Virus record (IMG/VR): IMGVR_UViG_2526164651_000002
Source: a virus
Lineage: Duplodnaviria > Heunggongvirae > Uroviricota > Caudoviricetes
DNA: 8,743 bases
Reading direction: 5' to 3' (one strand)
The notes under the pieces are model-generated. The model saw nothing but the letters and a program-made list of their open reading frames with translations, did no database searches and had not been told where the DNA came from. This document shows, piece after piece, positions 663 to 8,743 of the stretch (positions are counted from its first letter, which is position 1; every line of letters starts with the position of its first letter). The position numbers were made by a program, and so were the translations under genes.

Positions 663-890
663 TTTCGCATTGGCTAACTCCTTCGTGTATTTAGCATCGA
701 GTGCATCAGCAGCACGCTGGCGCTGCTGCATGTCAGTAATGGTTGCGTTCGCCAGCTTCAGTTCTCTTGCGTTTTTGTCGCGCTGCTCTTTGTAGGTAAT
801 GGCGTTATCACGGTAATGATTAACAGCCCATGACAGGCAGACGATGATGCAGATAACCAGAGCGGAGATAATCGCGGTGACTCTGCTCAT
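663..890 (-). pseudogene. Rz i-spanin, N-terminal ~75 codons, 3' end replaced by IS911
   Basis: [55 protein letters not shown]... has an N-terminal TM segment and coiled-coil start typical of lambdoid Rz. ATG at 888-890 overlaps the endolysin stop (ATGA). The frame runs into the IS911 terminus and stops at 660-662. Confidence 0.75.
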
Positions 891-1384
891 TGCTGCCCCC
901 ACAAACAGACTTCACGCTCAATCTCACGACGGGTCATCAGCCCTTTCCATTGCTTACCGCCAGCATATGTCCAGCGACGTAGCTGGTCACATGCGCCTTT
1001 GATATCGCCCTGGTTTATTTTGCGAAGAAGCGTCGATGTTCTGAAATTGCCAGCGCCCACGTTGTAAACGAACGAGTAAAGAGCGCCGCGCGTTGTTTCC
1101 GGTATATCGACTTTGATGTACGGGTTAATTTGTCTGGCGACAGTGACAAGGTCTTTATTCAGGAGAGCTTTGCATTCTGCTTCGGTATACGTTTTACCAG
1201 GCATGATGTCTTTTCCGGTGTGTCCGTGACATACAGCCCATACACCAATGATATCTTTGTATGGTATGTAGCTGACACCTTCCAGACCATCGTTACCACC
1301 TGGGCCAGTGATTAACACAGATGCTATAGCAACAGCCCCGCCACCAATAGCAACTGCAACAGCCTTGCGTAATGATGGCGACAT
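887..1384 (-). CDS. Phage lysozyme R, phage-21-type SAR endolysin (T4-lysozyme-like muramidase)
   Basis: 165 aa. The N-terminal Gly/Ala-rich weakly hydrophobic segment [20 protein letters not shown] is a SAR-domain signature. The E-x8-D-x5-T catalytic spacing ([24 protein letters not shown]) is present. Strong resemblance to R21 / DLP12 RrrD as recalled. Start overlaps the holin stop (TAATG). Confidence 0.9.
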
Positions 1385-1599
1385 TATTCACCTCTCGCAG
1401 CCTTACGCTTATCTTCTCTTATTTTGAAATACAGATTCGTCAGATAAGTCAGAAGCCCCAGAAGCAGACTTCCCAGCACACCAATCGCAGCCCACTGTGA
1501 TGGACTGACCTGATCCAACCACTGCAAAAACCAGTAGCCGGCACTGCCGGCGTAGGTGCCGTAGGCAATGCCTGTTGATATTTTTTCCATCTGATACAT
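1384..1599 (-). CDS. Class II holin (S21-like pinholin) with dual-start motif MYQM
   Basis: 71 aa: [71 protein letters not shown]. Two TM segments and a charged C-terminus. Met1 and Met4 give the antiholin/holin start pair. SD-like GGGGGCGGGA lies upstream. The ORF-track N-terminal extension to 1698 is rejected. Confidence 0.85.
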
Positions 1600-1630
1600 A
1601 TCCCGCCCCCGACAGACCTGTGCTATCGGA

Positions 1631-1663
1631 AAGAAAAAGGCCATCAGCAAAACTCTGATGGCC
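1631..1663 (-). terminator. Intrinsic terminator on the minus strand, ~30 nt upstream of the holin start
   Basis: Minus strand reads GGCCATCAG-agttttg-CTGATGGCC followed by TTTTTCTT (9-bp perfect stem, 7-nt loop, T-tract). Confidence 0.6.
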
Positions 1664-1772
1664 TGAATCACCTTTACCAATATTGTATGAAAAAACACGC
1701 ACGACTAATTGACAATAATTTTCATTTCCATTAAAAAAGATCGCGTAGCATTCTTAATTCATGAGGAACTTT

Positions 1773-1840
1773 ACCCGCCAGCAATCTGAGTAGCGAAAGC
1801 TGTTCATCCCCAATGTTTTTGCTGGCGGGTCCTTTTTTCT
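1773..1840 (+). repeat. 12-bp perfect inverted repeat (acccgccagcaa / ttgctggcgggt) separated by 34 nt, followed by T6 on the plus strand
   Basis: Seen directly: 1773-1784 and 1819-1830 are exact reverse complements; TTTTTT at 1834-1839. Function unknown (terminator-like for plus-strand transcripts, or a protein-binding palindrome). Confidence 0.7.
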
Positions 1841-2277
1841 ACGGTCCTCCTCCCCGGAGGGGGGCATTTCATTATTTTTCTAATCGTTACTGGTGAGAAG
1901 GCGGAAGAAAAAGCCAGTTCTTCGCCCCTAAATAACAGCATGATTCCAGTACATGCAAAATCTGATTTCCAGCTCACACATACCGAGTACTGTACAAAAA
2001 ACCGCCAACCAAGGCAGTTAAGAGTGTGTTCCCGGGGTTTGCTTAGAATATTTTGTAAGTTGTCCGAAGAGATATTTACAACACCAGAATGATGCATTAT
2101 CAGTCCCCTGCCAGAGGTTCACTACGTAACCTGACCGACAATGCACCATTCTGGTGCTGAAAAAAGAGCACTGGAACTGCAACAAAACAACATCACAGAA
2201 CAGGAGATGGTAAGGAGTCAGACATTCCCACACAATATTGTGTCAGTGCAAATAACAACCTTCGTCTCAAATCTCGC

Positions 2278-2352
<75 letters not shown>

Positions 2353-2355
2353 ATA

Positions 2356-2431
<76 letters not shown>

Positions 2432-2433
2432 GC

Positions 2434-2510
2434 TGGCCCACCACCGAGGACTCGAACCTCGCACCGTCAACTTAGAAGGTTGATGCTCTATCCGGATGAG
2501 CTAGTGGTGG
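2434..2510 (-). tRNA. tRNA-Arg (anticodon UCU), decodes AGA
   Basis: Reverse complement CCACCACTAGCTCATCCGGATAGAGCATCAACCTTCTAAGTTGACGGTGCGAGGTTCGAGTCCTCGGTGGTGGGCCA. 7-bp acceptor, D-stem GCTC/GAGC, anticodon stem TCAAC/GTTGA with loop CUUCUAA, T-arm CGAGG-TTCGAGT-CCTCG. The 5' C start is unusual; exact ends need tRNAscan. Confidence 0.75.
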
Positions 2511-2512
2511 TT

Positions 2513-2588
2513 GGTGGCCCTTGCTGGACTTGAACCAGCGACCTGGCGATTATGAGTCGCTCGCTCTGACCAACTGAGCTAAAGGGCC
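2513..2588 (-). tRNA. tRNA with CAU anticodon, ileX-like (probably lysidine-modified tRNA-Ile2 reading AUA; elongator Met not excluded)
   Basis: Reverse complement GGCCCTTTAGCTCAGTTGGTCAGAGCGAGCGACTCATAATCGCCAGGTCGCTGGTTCAAGTCCAGCAAGGGCCACCA. Anticodon loop CUCAUAA. Acceptor and anticodon arms closely resemble E. coli ileX as recalled. Confidence 0.8.
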
Positions 2589-2597
2589 GGAGGCAGA

Positions 2598-2626
2598 ATA
2601 ATAACCATATGTCATCACATCTGCAA
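2598..2626 (-). promoter_or_regulatory. Candidate sigma70 promoter for the tRNA array (-35 TTGCAG, 17-bp spacer, -10 TATTAT)
   Basis: Minus strand reads TTGCAG-atgtgatgacatatggt-TATTAT-tctgcctcc, then the first tRNA begins at 2588. Sequence inspection only. Confidence 0.4.
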
Positions 2627-2676
2627 ACTCATCTGACCACCAGCACGTTTAACGTCCTGTGCCGTTTTTCAGGTAT

Positions 2677-2705
2677 AAAAAAACCCGCATAAAGCGGGCT
2701 CTTTC
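2677..2705 (-). terminator. Intrinsic terminator downstream of the putative Q gene (candidate tR')
   Basis: Minus strand reads gaaagag-CCCGC-TTTAT-GCGGG-TTTTTTT, a GC stem with a 7-T tract, ~75 nt after the Q-like stop codon. Confidence 0.7.
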
Positions 2706-2777
2706 AAATGTCCATGTCTGCTATTCGCCTCGCGGTACAGCTTTGCGAAGCGTACAAGAATTGAAGCAGTTTTTACG

Positions 2778-3332
2778 TCAAAAAGCAATAACTTTTTTCT
2801 CTATACCAAAAGCCATAACCATTGGTTTGTACAAAATAAATTCTGCCACCTTTAGCCAATGCTCAATGCGTCTTTCACAGGTTCTTAAACTCCATTTCGG
2901 GTGTGCATCATTCAGCAGTTCAGCCATTTTGCGTTTGGTCATCCCCCGCCCCTCATACCGTTGCCGAAGGACGCTAATCAATCCTGGATGCTCTGCCAGC
3001 ACCTCACTTATGACCCGATCAATACATAACGCCTCTGCATCAGTACAATGCGCCAGCCAGCTCTTTTGCTTACCGTTAATCATATCCCGCAAAAAAGCCT
3101 CAAGTTCAGACTTGTTCAGACCTGCTTTTTTCATCCTCCGGAGCGCCTCGTTAATTGCCGTTTTTGTCAGCTTTTTAGAGGTCAACATCAGGTTAAACAT
3201 ATTCCCCGTCTTACCGCCACCAATATACGACCAGCGCCCCCACATACGTAGTTTTCCCTGAATCCAGACACTTTCCAGCGTGGTGAGACGAAGGTGTTCT
3301 CCGCTTTTTCCTGTATTCGTTGGGTAAATCAT
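2778..3332 (-). CDS. Putative late-gene antiterminator Q (phage antitermination-Q-like), 184 aa
   Basis: Position is canonical: after nin-region genes and before a terminator and the lysis cassette. Start at 3330-3332 is preceded by AGGAGG with a 7-nt spacer and overlaps the upstream stop (ATGA). Family assignment is from recollection plus context, not a search; the ORF-track extension to 3452 is rejected. Confidence 0.5.
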   Translation of the reverse strand: MIYPTNTGKSGEHLRLTTLESVWIQGKLRMWGRWSYIGGGKTGNMFNLMLTSKKLTKTAINEALRRMKKAGLNKSELEAFLRDMINGKQKSWLAHCTDAEALCIDRVISEVLAEHPGLISVLRQRYEGRGMTKRKMAELLNDAHPKWSLRTCERRIEHWLKVAEFILYKPMVMAFGIEKKVIAF

Positions 3333-3619
3333 AAATATCCCTCCTTTCTCCAGATTTCTTGTGTGCGAAAAACACCTTCTGCATGCATCAGGCGTAATTC
3401 TTCTTTGGTGTAATCGCTGGTTTTTACCCGCCCGTCGATTAAATCGTGGCACGAGCTACAGGCAATCGCTGCCTGCATATCGTGTGGCTTTATCGCTGTT
3501 CCGCACGTTCCCGCCAGTCGGTAATGCGCCAGCACAGACGTTTCCGGATCGTGATTGCAGTAGCCAGGAATTCTGACGGTGCACATCTGCCCCCGCGCCG
3601 CTTTAAGTAAATCCACCAT
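3329..3619 (-). CDS. YbcO-like nin-region protein (DUF1364, putative Zn-binding nuclease), 96 aa
   Basis: MVDLLKAARGQMCTVRIPGYCNHDPETSVLAHYRLAGTCGTAIKPHDMQAAIACSSCHDLID... has the cysteine pattern and length of DLP12 YbcO as recalled. Translationally coupled to both neighbours (TAATG at 3617-3621, ATGA at 3329-3332). Confidence 0.6.
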   Translation of the reverse strand: MVDLLKAARGQMCTVRIPGYCNHDPETSVLAHYRLAGTCGTAIKPHDMQAAIACSSCHDLIDGRVKTSDYTKEELRLMHAEGVFRTQEIWRKEGYL

Positions 3620-4218
3620 TACGCAAACTCCAGCAGCTGCGCGGCCACATTTTCGACTTGTTCCGGAGAGGAAAATTTACGGAACAGAATCCAGTTCCAC
3701 AGCACATTCAGTACAGATTTATAAACCTGCTGAAACTCGGTTTCGTCCATATTCGCAAACGCGATAGATTTCGCCCGACACCCACGGCTACCGTCCGGAT
3801 AAAAATGCTCGGTGTAAAATCCGGCCTGAATGGCTACCCACTCGCGGAAAGCCTCAAACGACTTTAGCAATGCCGTATCACGGGTTCTGCGTGTCGCAAC
3901 TGTATTCAGATATTGCTCTGCGGCTTCGCTCAGAGCTGGCGTATGTTCCCGGCCTACTGATTCACACAGGTAATCAACGAAACCGGACACCAGTTTTCGT
4001 TCGCGAGGCGTGATCGCCCCACCGATCGGAGTCCAGTAATCGAAACCCAGTTGCAGGAGTTTGAAAAAACGCTTGTGGAATGCGTAGTTACGCACACGCT
4101 TAAAGTCTGCGTGTATCCACTCACCTATTTTGATTTGATGCAGAAAATCGCAACTCTCCGGCGTCGCCGGGAGAAGTAATCCGGAAGAGGTTTGTTTGAC
4201 CAGTTGTATATGTGCCAT
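3619..4218 (-). CDS. YbcN-like nin-region protein (DUF1367 family), 199 aa
   Basis: Start MAHIQLVKQ... at 4216-4218 has the RBS GGAGAAAG. Motifs FHKRFFKLLQLGFDYWTP and AKSIAFANMDETEF resemble the YbcN family as recalled. The ORF-track upstream extension to 4260 is rejected. Confidence 0.5.
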   Translation of the reverse strand: MAHIQLVKQTSSGLLLPATPESCDFLHQIKIGEWIHADFKRVRNYAFHKRFFKLLQLGFDYWTPIGGAITPRERKLVSGFVDYLCESVGREHTPALSEAAEQYLNTVATRRTRDTALLKSFEAFREWVAIQAGFYTEHFYPDGSRGCRAKSIAFANMDETEFQQVYKSVLNVLWNWILFRKFSSPEQVENVAAQLLEFA

Positions 4219-4256
4219 CGGCTTTCTCCGGTGGCACGGTGTTACACAGCAGGAGT

Positions 4257-4544
4257 TCAATCCTGCTCAAGATTGTAGATGAGTTTATTCTTCAGCAAAA
4301 GCAGAAAACCAGCCTTAAAACCAATCTCTTTCAAAACCCGTAATGATGTGACAAATTCGTCCTCACGCAAAATAAAACCGTCCGTCAGAAGTCCATTACA
4401 AAAATAAAATAACACAGCACCGCTCTTCCTTTGTTGAGATTGCAAACATCTAATGCGGCAATGGCTGACAATCGCTCCATTCTCAACGCGCACAGCATAG
4501 AGGCCATTTTCACTAAAAATTTCACGCAATTCTTCGATTTTCAT
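4257..4544 (-). CDS. Hypothetical protein, 95 aa, no family recognised
   Basis: ORF with a plausible RBS (GGAAGGA ~8 nt upstream of the ATG at 4542-4544). Lies between the hok terminator and the nin genes. Confidence 0.4.
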   Translation of the reverse strand: MKIEELREIFSENGLYAVRVENGAIVSHCRIRCLQSQQRKSGAVLFYFCNGLLTDGFILREDEFVTSLRVLKEIGFKAGFLLLLKNKLIYNLEQD

Positions 4545-4664
4545 CTTCAGAATCCTTCCAGATAAATAGCTCTCCCCTGTTCGGGGTCCATCCCTCTTCT
4601 CCCTGCGCGCTACTTAAGTGAGTCGATTCTATCTGCGAAGGTGCGCGAATCAAATTCACCGGAA

Positions 4665-4716
4665 ATAAACAACAAAAAACCCGCCGAAACGCTGAGAGAT
4701 CACAGCGATGGGCGGG
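4665..4716 (-). terminator. Terminator-like stem-loop with T-tract downstream of hok (also a candidate hok mRNA 3' fold-back element)
   Basis: Minus strand reads CCCGCC-cat-CGCTG-tgatctct-CAGCG-tttc-GGCGGG followed by TTTTTTGTTGTTT. Confidence 0.5.
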
Positions 4717-4793
4717 TTAAGTGCGGGTGCGTTGAGGATGCCTGACACATCAGAGGTGGGCGGGGATGGGATCAGCTCCCCACCCGGTCACTC

Positions 4794-4949
4794 TTACTTC
4801 CTGGATTCGTAGTCTACGAAGACAGCGACCTCCGTCTGGCCGGTTCGGATTCGTACCTCACAGAGGTCTTTCCTCGTTACCAGTGCCGTCACTATGACGG
4901 TTAAACAGATGACGATCAGGGCGATTAACATCGCCTTTTGCTGCTTCAT
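4794..4949 (-). CDS. hok: Hok/Gef-family type I toxin, 51 aa
   Basis: MKQQKAMLIALIVICLTVIVTALVTRKDLCEVRIRTGQTEVAVFVDYESRK has the single TM helix and conserved C-terminal CEVRIR...EVAVF motif; very close to HokD/RelF as recalled. RBS AAGGAG lies 9 nt upstream. The in-frame upstream extension to 5006 may be a mok-like leader frame. Confidence 0.85.
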   Translation of the reverse strand: MKQQKAMLIALIVICLTVIVTALVTRKDLCEVRIRTGQTEVAVFVDYESRK

Positions 4950-5176
4950 AGCCTGCTTCTCCTTGCCTTTCGGCATGTAAGAGGCTAACCTACATGTGCA
5001 AAGCATGAAATTGGCCTCAGATTAATGTTAAGCGTCTTGCCGGACGCGTAATGTTAACTGGGGCTTTTCTCTATCTGCCTTTTGGTGTTCATGCCTGAAG
5101 CAGATAGCCTCAAGCACCCGCAGTCATTCTACTTACCTCGCCAATATGAAATCAATCAGAAAGGTGCCCCATAAAA

Positions 5177-5863
5177 TCACTCCTTCTCTTCTTTACCGTA
5201 GTGGAGTTGACCAATTTTGATAAGAGGGCGTCCCTGAGATTTGCGGTGTAGATTGGTATCGCGCAGAGAATACACACAGCCACAATATTCCTGCTGATAG
5301 AATTTTTCGCGCTTGCTGATTTCAATCATACGGGACGAGCCGCCCTGCTTGCGCCAGTTATAATCCCAGTACACCATGCCCGGATAATGCGCGACGGCTC
5401 GCCGCCCACAGTCGTTAACCTGCTGCATATTTTTCCAGCGTGAAATGCCCAGTGAACTGCTGATCACACTGAAACCATTTTCAGCGGCGTACAGCGCTGT
5501 CCGCTCAAAACGCATGTCAAAACACATGGTGCAACGGATCCCTCGTTCGGGCTCCCATTCCATTCCTTTGGCTCGTTCAAACCAGTTGTCTGTGTCGTAA
5601 TCAGCATCAATAAACGGCACGCCGTGTTGTTCAGCAAAGCGAATATTCTCATCCTTACGAATTAAATACTCTTTCTGAGGATGAATGTTCGGGTTGTAGA
5701 AAAAGATGGTGTAGTCGATTCCCGAGGCCTGAAGCGCCTCCATCACCTCACCGGAACATGGAGCACAGCAAGAGTGCAGTAGTAGTTTGTTTGCCCCGTT
5801 TGGGAGCTCCAATTTGGGCCGTTTGAAATCAGCAACTGTCATAAATATGTTTATTGGGGTCAT
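5177..5863 (-). CDS. QueH-like epoxyqueuosine reductase (DUF208 family), 228 aa
   Basis: Hallmark motifs [30 protein letters not shown] and [12 protein letters not shown] match the DUF208/QueH signature as recalled. The true start (Met1 or Met8) is uncertain and neither has a clear SD. Confidence 0.7.
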
Positions 5864-6082
5864 AAAAATATCAAAGAGTGTAGCATTAGAACGGGGCTAT
5901 CGGAAACAGATGTGTGACTGCTCCCCGCCCTTTCGGGCGGTCTCCTGATGATTTGAGGGTGCAGAAATCCCTCCGGTTAAGGATTAAATTTTTAACAGTG
6001 CTAAATTTAATTATTCAGTTCTGGATTTTGTCGCCCTGCGTATCCGCGCTTTCGCGTTACGCTCAATCTGTATCTGAAGTGG

Positions 6083-7260
<1,178 letters not shown>

Positions 7261-7322
7261 GTGTTGTTCTGAGGTGAGCATATCACCTCTGTTCAGGTGG
7301 CCAAATTCAGTGTGCCACTTCA

Positions 7323-7397
7323 AACTGAATTTATGCCAGCAATGGCAGGGATTCGCTCAACCTTAATTAAGGAGAAAAACATGAACACCAATTATGA
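7323..7397 (+). other. 75-bp orphan segment between IS911 and IS1, holding an RBS and the first six codons (MNTNYE) of an unidentified gene cut by IS1
   Basis: aaggagaaaaacATGAACACCAATTATGAG runs straight into the IS1 terminus at 7398. Confidence 0.4.
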
Positions 7398-7412
7398 GGT
7401 AATGACTCCAAC

Positions 7413-7916
7413 TTACTGATAGTGTTTTATGTTCAGATAATGCCCGATGACCTTGTCATGCAGCTCCACCGATTTTGAGAACGACAGTGACTTCCGTCCC
7501 AGCCTTGCCAGATGTTGTCTCAGATTCAGATTATGTCGCTCAATGCGCTGAGTGTAACGCTTGCTGATAACGTGCAGCTTTCCCTTCAGGCGTGATTCAT
7601 ACAGCGGACAGCCATCCGTCATCCATACCACGACCTCAAAGGCCGACAGCAGGCTCAGAAGACGCTCCAGTGTGGCCAGAGTGCGTTCACCGAAGACGTG
7701 CGCCACAACAGTCCTCCGTATCCTGTCATACGCGTAAAACAGCCAGCGCTGACGTGATTTAGCACCGACGTAGCCCCACTGTTCGTCCATTTCAGCGCAG
7801 ACAATCACATCACTGCCCGGTTGTATGCGCGAGGTTACCGACTGCGGCCTGAGTTTTTTAAGTGACGTAAAACCCTGTTGAGGCCAACGCCCATAATGCG
7901 TGCACTGGCGCGACAT
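7413..7916 (-). CDS. insB: IS1 InsB frame (expressed as the InsAB' transposase by -1 frameshift)
   Basis: 167-aa ORF with the typical IS1 InsB sequence; slippery TTAAAAAACTC lies on the minus strand around 7851-7860. Confidence 0.9.
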
Positions 7917-8110
7917 CCGACGCCATTCATGGCCATATCAATGATTTTCTGGTGCGTACCGGGCTGAGAGGCGGTGTAAGTGAACTGTAGTTGCCATGTT
8001 TTACGGCAATGAGAGCAGAGATAGCGCTGATGTCCGGCAGTGCTTTTGCCGTTACGCACCACGCCTTCAGTAGCGGAGCAGGAAGGACATCTGATGGAAA
8101 TGGAAGCCAC
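7835..8110 (-). CDS. insA: IS1 InsA (zinc-finger/HTH transposition regulator)
   Basis: 91 aa, [40 protein letters not shown]..., the canonical InsA sequence. Confidence 0.92.
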
Positions 8111-8165
8111 GCAAGCACCTTAAAATCACCATCATACACTAAATCAGTAAGTTGGCAGCATTACC

Positions 8166-8743
8166 GTCTTGCCGAAGAAGATCCAGCTTCTGCAACCAGG
8201 CCATTCAGAACTGAAGTGAAGCGCAGTCGACTGTTAATTGACGAGTATCTGTTAATCAGGAAAATAGCAGACGTCCAGAACGAATGGTTCGGCCTTTGCA
8301 TGGATCTTGCACTGGTAACAGGACAGCGCGAAGGAGATCTGGCGGCTATGAGATGGGAGGATATAAGAGATGGCAGGCTATACGTGGAACAACAAAAAAC
8401 AGGGGCAAAAATTCGCATTTCTCTCCCCACCACGATTTCCAGATTGAATTTAACACTTGCCGATGTACTGGATAACTTGAAAAAAATAAACGGTAAAAAC
8501 GAAAAGTTACTCGGAGGGAAGACAGCCAGGACAATCGCAGCACAGTTCAGGATTGCCCGAGACACATCCGGATTGAAATGGGAAGGTGACCCACCGCCAT
8601 TTCATGAAATCCGAAGTTTATCCGGTCGCCTGCACTCAGCAGAAAAAGGCAGTGATTTCACTCAGGCGCTCCTTGGACATCGTTCATCCAGCATGACGGA
8701 TAAATACCGTGACGGACGAGGGAGGGAATGGAAAGACATTTAG
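8166..8743 (+). pseudogene. Lambda-Int-like tyrosine integrase, C-terminal catalytic domain only (~191 codons), 5' part removed at the IS1 junction
   Basis: ...CMDLALVTGQREGD..., YVEQQKTGAKI, FHEIRSLSGRL, LLGHRSS and MTDKYRDGRGREWKDI align residue by residue with the lambda Int R-K-H-R-H-Y catalytic region as recalled. Stop TAG at 8741-8743. The first 58 codons of ORF 7991..8743 are IS1 sequence. Confidence 0.9.

Follow-up and report, generated by a model that had tools for sequence, protein, structure and literature searches.

The region at about 4674-5155 of the window (the whole 8,743-nt stretch of DNA that was analysed) is very probably, as judged from its sequence, a complete type I toxin-antitoxin module (hok/mok/sok) that belongs to the hokW/sokW lineage found in prophages. 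None of the expected sequence elements is missing; they are homologous to those of a validated system and conserved in structure. Membership of this lineage is indicated by 91.8% identity to 933W over 425 nt and by lambdoid early or nin-like neighbours. The module is an ordinary one that has already been described: it is of the hokW/sokW type of lambdoid prophages and carries the RefSeq label hokD. Nothing in the locus is new, and identical copies are already in public genomes. The original prediction had called the region a hok/gef-type locus at 4794-5176; Pfam (HOK_GEF) and Rfam (RF01794) agree with the family, and the range has been corrected to about 4674-5155.

To describe the locus we used an alignment of 31 loci. 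Genome contigs were scanned for 27 of these, and the window, 933W, EcO18 (an E. coli O18 prophage) and R1 make up the remainder; they are drawn from Escherichia, Shigella, Kluyvera, Photorhabdus, Pantoea, Erwinia and plasmid R1. The names of the mRNA elements (tac, ucb, fbi and others) follow PMC9841398. The features of the locus and of its surroundings are the following.

5150..5155, minus strand: candidate -35 (TTGATT) of the hok promoter, 18 nt from the -10; consensus scan, 9/12 matches
5126..5131, minus strand: -10 (TAGAAT) of the hok promoter; kept in 933W, EcO18 and most other aligned loci
5108..5119, minus strand: tac element GGGUGCUUGAGG, 5' end of the hok mRNA with +1 near 5119; position 1 of the Rfam model, pairs with fbi
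5071..5107, minus strand: 5' hairpin CTATCTGC ... GCAGATAG; fold, Rfam and 31-locus alignment
5058..5069, minus strand: ucb or anti-SD segment GAAAAGCCCCAG; fold and Rfam consensus
4998..5068, plus strand: predicted Sok-like antitoxin RNA of about 71 nt; coordinates transferred from the sokW misc_RNA
5015..5018, minus strand: mok Shine-Dalgarno GAGG; hardly varies across the 31 loci, held by ucb when the full-length mRNA is folded
4794..5006, minus strand: mok-like ORF of 70 aa, an N-terminal extension of Hok in the same frame; ATG at 5006
4963..4991, plus strand: Sok-like promoter, -35 TTGCCT (4963-4968), 17-nt spacer, -10 TAACCT (4986-4991); identical hexamers in sokW
4959..4964, minus strand: hok Shine-Dalgarno AAGGAG; motif kept in most of the 31 aligned loci
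4794..4949, minus strand: hok toxin ORF of 51 aa; Pfam HOK_GEF, NCBIfam Hok family
4758..4785, minus strand: GC-rich stem-loop just past the hok stop codon; fold, 9-bp stem
4725..4737, minus strand: fbi (fold-back inhibitory) element CCUCAACGCACCC; pairs with tac, identical in 933W and K-12 hokD
4674..4718, minus strand: intrinsic terminator of the hok mRNA, CCCGCC/GGCGGG stem and T6 run; fold and sequence
5177-5863, minus strand: QueH epoxyqueuosine reductase; Pfam E=1.9e-65
2278-2588, minus strand: four tRNA genes (Gly-TCC, Thr-TGT, Arg-TCT and one with a CAT anticodon); ARAGORN
1-662, 6075-7330 and about 7340-8110: IS3-family transposase genes (left copy split in two ORFs) and an IS1 transposase gene

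The toxin gene and its upstream extension

The Hok coding sequence proposed at 4794-4949 is present as an ORF of 51 aa (MKQQKAMLIALIVICLTVIVTALVTRKDLCEVRIRTGQTEVAVFVDYESRK), which matches Pfam HOK_GEF at profile positions 1-42 of 42 (E=9.8e-23; 79.9 bits, cut-off 22). With the NCBIfam Hok subfamily model it scored 55 bits, under the 73-bit cut-off. Compared with HokW of 933W, the peptide shows one residue change, R50 for E50 (50/51 identical), and the other three coding differences are synonymous.

An in-frame upstream ATG at 5006 had been described as mok-like, and it indeed opens a 70-aa ORF laid out as in mokW and mokC. Both the length and the in-frame 213-nt layout are the same as in mokW/hokW of 933W and in mokC/hokC of K-12. 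The mok Shine-Dalgarno GAGG (5018-5015) is followed after 8 nt by the ATG at 5006, whose column is nearly invariant across the 31 loci. Other short ORFs in the region were observed at 5082..5174 and 4766..4897, both on the plus strand.

We also observed that the codon of Tyr47, a conserved tyrosine near the Hok C-terminus, is UAC followed by G, which gives a UACG motif at 4808-4811 on the minus strand; the ACGA core of the site is kept across the 31 aligned loci. A preprint (bioRxiv 10.1101/2025.08.07.668861) reports A-to-I editing by TadA, changing Tyr to Cys, for the hokC, hokD and hokE mRNAs, and by its sequence the Tyr47 codon appears to correspond to that editing site. Editing of Tyr47, if it occurs, would give a second cysteine for a disulfide with Cys30.

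The 3' hairpin and the terminator

R1 has a 3' hairpin that protects the processed mRNA, and its role is described in PMC9841398; by analogy, the stem-loop at 4758..4785 may have the same function here. Its sequence differs from that of 933W and EcO18, and the stem is still formed. The structured terminator claimed at 4665-4716 is present, with CCCGCC at 4716-4711, GGCGGG at 4685-4680 and the T6 run at 4679-4674. Its loop carries a 23-nt insertion with its own hairpin, CGCTG/CAGCG (4686-4710, minus strand), which is found in neither K-12 hokD nor EcO18, where the terminator has the simple CCCGCttcgGCGGG form.

Directly after the hok terminator there is a second promoter-like site, TTGATT-16-TAGAAT (4626-4653, minus strand), with the same hexamers as the hok promoter. 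It precedes a 95-aa ORF (4544..4257), for which no Pfam match was found.

The antisense RNA gene

A plus-strand antisense RNA had been expected at about 4950-5060, and homology places a putative gene there, with a promoter at 4963-4991 and an RNA at about 4998-5068. The ends of the RNA were transferred by alignment from the sokW misc_RNA (AF125520 58664..58734). A consensus scan for promoters and terminators found the hok promoter; it returned neither the Sok promoter, nor the Sok terminator, nor the hok terminator. The Sok promoter was missed because its -10, TAACCT, has only 3/6 matches to the consensus, which is probably also why it went unrecognised in the original prediction. The hok terminator was missed because its loop is longer than 8 nt, and we assume that the Sok hairpin was skipped owing to its internal mismatches. 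The negative outcome of the scan was therefore treated as a limit of the tool, and homology was used to place the Sok gene.

The spacer of the Sok promoter has one difference from sokW, at position 4976. A pattern of TTGnnn, 17 nt (occasionally 18) and TAnnnT is present in 29/31 loci, including those of Photorhabdus, Pantoea, Erwinia and R1, the last with TTGCGC-17-TATCCT. The two exceptions are L021, a 5'-truncated hokD copy, and L020, whose -35 is disrupted. In the 'pro-less' sokW mutant (primers YO-421/422) exactly the TAACCTA box is replaced and the antitoxin activity is lost (Takada et al., PMC8621323); the protection lost in this promoter-less construct was partly restored by sokW supplied in trans (PMC8621323).

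The predicted Sok RNA would fold into about 9 unpaired 5' nt, a long interrupted hairpin and a CUUUUCUCU tail (-30.2 kcal/mol, z = -4.9). Its 5' single-stranded tail is complementary to the mok start region, and its promoter lies inside mok. The question of whether the antitoxin RNA is intact can be answered at the level of sequence: there the Sok gene is intact, with hexamers identical to those of sokW and a predicted tail, hairpin and U-tract, and it can be placed to within a few bases.

Variation in the Sok recognition region

Of the differences from 933W, seven substitutions are concentrated at 5013-4999, in the 16 nt surrounding the mok ATG; this stretch corresponds to the Sok 5' tail and its target. 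Among 11 close relatives, the mean column entropy reaches about 0.85-0.9 in the approximately 20 nt around the mok start (4994-5014) whereas elsewhere in the leader and coding sequence it mostly stays at 0.1 or below, and only the loops of the 5' hairpin (0.84) and of the 3' hairpin (0.74) approach it. It is conceivable, though in our judgement quite unlikely, that these 20 nt or so constitute a hypervariable specificity cassette selected for orthogonal hok/sok copies, with the window copy drifting to a Sok-only immunity element. Under such a reading, resident Sok RNAs would not neutralise incoming prophages, and these in turn would have no neutralising effect on the toxins already in the cell.

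One Shigella flexneri genome holds three different alleles (L008, L009 and L012). We considered the Sok-tail allele of the window as a unique one and rejected this, since about 340 E. coli genomes have it at 100% identity. Some of the co-resident paralogues show clear degradation, with a mutated tac region in L020 (E. coli ECMA0423) and a hokD-type copy without leader in L021; the window copy is intact.

Leader elements and mRNA folding

The leader had been put at about 225 nt, a figure that fits the 227-nt gap between the QueH stop codon (5177) and the hok ATG; the transcribed leader is shorter, about 170 nt, its +1 lying near 5119 and the hok ATG at 4949. The inverted segments ctatctgc and gcagatag noted there are present and exact; they had been likened to fold-back elements, but form instead the 5' hairpin between tac and ucb. 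The arms of this hairpin, CTATCTGC (5107-5100) and GCAGATAG (5078-5071), are an exact inverted repeat that extends to a 10-bp stem. The true fold-back pair is that of tac (5119-5108) with fbi (4737-4725), comprising 12 pairs, and fbi falls outside the range given in the original prediction. The ucb segment binds the mok SD as long as the mRNA is closed and tac once it is open, and its complement gives the U-tract of Sok.

The full-length mRNA (5119..4674, 446 nt) was folded as one RNA. Its minimum-energy fold (-187.7 kcal/mol, z = -8.3) has both tac/fbi and ucb/mok SD paired, the mok SD pairing with the GCCCCAG segment of ucb. The tac/fbi helix is extended by the mok start region, where 5006-4994 pairs with 4750-4738, and the distal (3') part of the coding region is paired with the SD and start of hok. 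This predicted fold is the closed, untranslatable and Sok-refractory form known from R1 (described in PMC9841398). Folding of the full mRNA and alignment to characterised loci had both been proposed as checks on the locus: the first gave this tac/fbi-closed structure, and the second near-identity with 933W hokW between the hok -10 and fbi, both included.

The structure is conserved among the 31 loci. The proportion of paired cells was 83%, compared with 36-43% when the partners were slid by 1-3 columns, and we counted 50 pairs with changes on both sides, a number matched by 0/500 shuffles. The 5' hairpin (helix 4) is 96.8% paired, with A-U swapped for U-A or G-C at columns 110/182, and helices 2 and 3 are 86-89% paired. 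A compensatory change in tac/fbi (alignment columns 99/553) shows U-A in 18 loci and C-G in 10; the helix between the hok start and the coding region shows C-G versus U-A covariation (14 vs 14, columns 310/457), and the ucb/SD helix also shows compensatory changes.

RF01794 ('sok') is the sole non-tRNA Rfam match in the whole window. It lies at 5119..4944 on the minus strand and covers the full model, 1-157 (117 bits, gathering score 59, E=7.6e-27), well beyond a chance match. The consensus of this family, which is on the hok strand, opens with tac (GGGUGCUUGAG) and runs as far as the AUG of hok. Since the model spans tac to the hok AUG, it describes the hok-sense leader in its open conformation, and Sok is the complement of part of it; we accordingly rejected the match as the antisense RNA itself. 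The open-form stems, tac/ucb and SD-mok/dcb, are contained in the Rfam consensus, and all key stems are canonical in the window. For the isolated leader, the open form has -41.9 kcal/mol against -58.2 kcal/mol for the minimum-energy fold, a gap of about 16; this comparison is uninformative because the validated R1 leader has the same kind of gap (-48.3 against -62.1, about 14). The 3'-trimmed mRNA folds into the tac metastable hairpin and not into the open form.

Occurrence and comparison with known loci

A megablast search with a 651-nt query, in which the 3' end of QueH was included, identified related loci in 4731/5426 complete E. coli genomes. In 741 E. coli genomes the matches cover at least 80% of the query at 91-92% identity and correspond to QueH-hok loci. 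The E. coli matches are annotated as 'type I toxin-antitoxin system toxin HokD', often beside 'epoxyqueuosine reductase QueH'. Related loci were also found in 79 phage records, including 933W and VT2-Sakai, where mokW, hokW and the antisense sokW are all annotated.

The closest characterised system is hokW/mokW/sokW of the Stx2 phage 933W and the Sakai prophage Sp5 (AF125520; Takada et al. 2021, PMC8621323), with about 92% DNA identity from the hok -10 through fbi; the identity to VT2-Sakai is likewise about 92%. The window and 933W share the 70-aa in-frame Mok, the 51-aa Hok and the Sok hairpin, and identity is complete in tac, ucb, fbi, the Shine-Dalgarno sequences of mok and hok, and the -35 and -10 hexamers of Sok. 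They differ upstream of -20, where 933W has L0139 and the window QueH, and in the 3' hairpin, whose loop is larger in the window and whose sequence is not the same. The terminator region of the window resembles K-12 hokD, unlike 933W, and the position in the phage genome also differs from that in 933W. The 933W/Sp5 hokW/sokW locus is an experimentally working type I toxin-antitoxin system: HokW is toxic and is neutralised by sokW when the latter is transcribed from its own promoter, mutation of the -10 abolishes this, and RNase III and Hfq contribute (PMC8621323).

RefSeq PGAP calls the window-type gene hokD. K-12 hokD (relF), in the cryptic prophage Qin, is homologous to the window in the coding region, 3' hairpin, fbi and terminator. 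The homology extends from the hok SD onward only; upstream, K-12 hokD adjoins relBE and is without tac, ucb, mok and sok; the window has the complete form. K-12 hokC (gef)/mokC/sokC has Mok in frame, an alignable leader and sokC annotated at the equivalent position. It differs in being without the 18-nt Sok hairpin extension and in not being prophage-borne; IS186 lies just downstream of it, and the 3' homology to the window ends about 60 nt past the stop codon. We looked for a disruption like that beside K-12 hokC and found no IS element or frameshift within 4674-5155.

The order of elements is also the same in hok/mok/sok of R1: promoter, tac, 5' hairpin, ucb, Sok terminator hairpin, mok SD and ATG, the Sok promoter within mok, hok, 3' hairpin, fbi and terminator. 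The mok frame of R1 is shifted by one base against that of hok, the two ATGs being 58 nt apart as against 57 in the window. The R1 locus is plasmid-borne and post-segregational killing is proven there; R1 Hok and HokW have 44% protein identity (Takada et al., PMC8621323).

A 10-nt deletion in the hok promoter

The gap from the QueH stop codon to tac is 77 nt in the window and 87 nt in 873 other E. coli genomes. The difference is a 10-nt deletion in the spacer of the hok promoter (5132-5155), by which the ancestral TTGGCG-17-TAGAAT is gone. EcO18 carries a GAGGTGACGT-type insert where the window has the deletion, and in two aligned loci, EcO18 and L010, the -35 is TTGGCG, 17 nt from the -10. 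The short junction was found only in the window, in L008 of S. flexneri and in two FDAARGOS E. coli strains, and TTGATT stands at the -35 position solely because of this lineage-specific deletion.

The surrounding prophage remnant

The locus had been attributed to a decaying prophage, and this description fits: prophage DNA is confined to 663-6074, with IS elements on both sides. The 5.4-kb remnant encodes a lysozyme, a 104-aa ORF sitting where related prophages have the holin, the four tRNAs, a DUF1133 Q-like protein, DUF1364, DUF1367, the 95-aa ORF, hok and QueH. No immunity, replication or structural genes of the prophage are found within the window, and the module sits in a heavily eroded, non-inducible remnant. 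In related prophages the hok locus occupies the same early-region position, beside QueH, DUF1367 and Q-like genes.

The 70-aa Mok ORF is 100% identical to one in a Shigella flexneri chromosome, and the 201 nt of upstream leader read in L008 (S. flexneri) are identical to the window. An IS-bounded remnant of this kind is typical of an IS-rich, Shigella-type chromosome. We also noted that the tRNA with a CAT anticodon is called Met by ARAGORN, and that RefSeq has tRNA-Ile at that position of the cluster in a near-identical prophage. A 250-aa ORF at 7991..8743 on the plus strand had no NCBIfam match.

Proposed mechanism and possible roles

By homology with R1 hok/sok and Sp5 hokW/sokW, a constitutive promoter (TAGAAT, 5131-5126) would make a stable mRNA of about 446 nt. 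Its 5' tac would pair with the 3' fbi, the mok SD would be held by ucb and the mok start would be buried, so that the closed mRNA would be neither translated nor bound by Sok. Slow 3' trimming would take off fbi, and the trimmed leader would refold into the tac/ucb and SD-mok/dcb stems, so that the mok start would be presented in a hairpin loop. This exposed loop would be bound by the 5' tail of a short and unstable RNA from the plus strand (about 4998-5068, made from TTGCCT-17-TAACCT); the pairing would block the translation of mok and the coupled translation of hok and mark the duplex for RNase III. Upon depletion of Sok, the 51-aa Hok would be made and the inner membrane damaged. It is by analogy with these systems that we infer transcription, processing, toxicity and a biological role in the host.

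The remnant is without regulatory and morphogenetic modules, and hence the lysis-assisting role of Sp5 hokW/sokW cannot apply here; this leaves addiction that serves its own preservation, perhaps a function against phages, or no function at all. Chromosomal hokA, hokB and hokC tested earlier gave no post-segregational killing, as summarised in the preprint cited above (bioRxiv 10.1101/2025.08.07.668861), and for this reason we place only moderate weight on the module being live.

It is possible, if somewhat unlikely, that the locus is intact but functionally silent like the chromosomal hok loci tested, drifting in a non-inducible remnant and giving neither killing on loss nor a response to transcription arrest. 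The reduction of the prophage to 663-6074 between IS3-family and IS1 elements, with no immunity, replication or structural genes in the window, and the 10-nt deletion in the hok promoter are consistent with silence. On the other hand, every regulatory element is conserved and the differences in paired regions, for example in the 3' hairpin, keep the stems, which argues for recent or continuing purifying selection. Moreover, the near-identical hokW/sokW is active (PMC8621323), and a substitute -35 hexamer with an equal match to the consensus is present.

We regard as unlikely a phage-related role, either faster lysis on induction as in Sp5, or abortive infection once a phage shuts down host transcription and Sok decays. 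In Sp5, treatment with mitomycin C makes sokW vanish, HokW precedes the endolysin by about 1 h, and deletion of the locus halves phage release (PMC8621323). The conserved early-region position beside QueH, DUF1367 and Q-like genes in related prophages points in the same direction, as does an approximately four-fold enrichment of hok genes in prophages. However, lysis timing cannot operate in a remnant without regulatory and morphogenetic modules, and a section heading of the bioRxiv survey states that hok is not enriched beside defence systems.

It is very improbable that the promoter deletion has attenuated the toxin side and left the locus mainly as a Sok donor, giving 'anti-addiction' or immunity against incoming hok loci of the same allele: the deletion is confined to the window, L008 and the two FDAARGOS strains as against 873 longer-form genomes, the Sok promoter is untouched and about 340 E. 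coli genomes share the Sok-tail allele of the window, but TTGATT-18-TAGAAT scores 9/12, the same as a typical promoter, read-through from QueH is possible (the consensus scan found no terminator between 5177 and 5155), and the Hok ORF and all mRNA elements are intact.

The reading that we prefer is that of a sequence-complete module of the hokW/sokW lineage. A selfish type I module that is whole in a 5.4-kb prophage stub fits the idea of deletion resistance, although it does not prove it. In the related genomes inspected, RefSeq annotates the toxin ORF only, as hokD. Beyond annotation the importance of the locus is slight, and it offers two modest leads: the diversity of Sok recognition alleles, with the cross-talk of co-resident copies that this concerns, and the promoter deletion.
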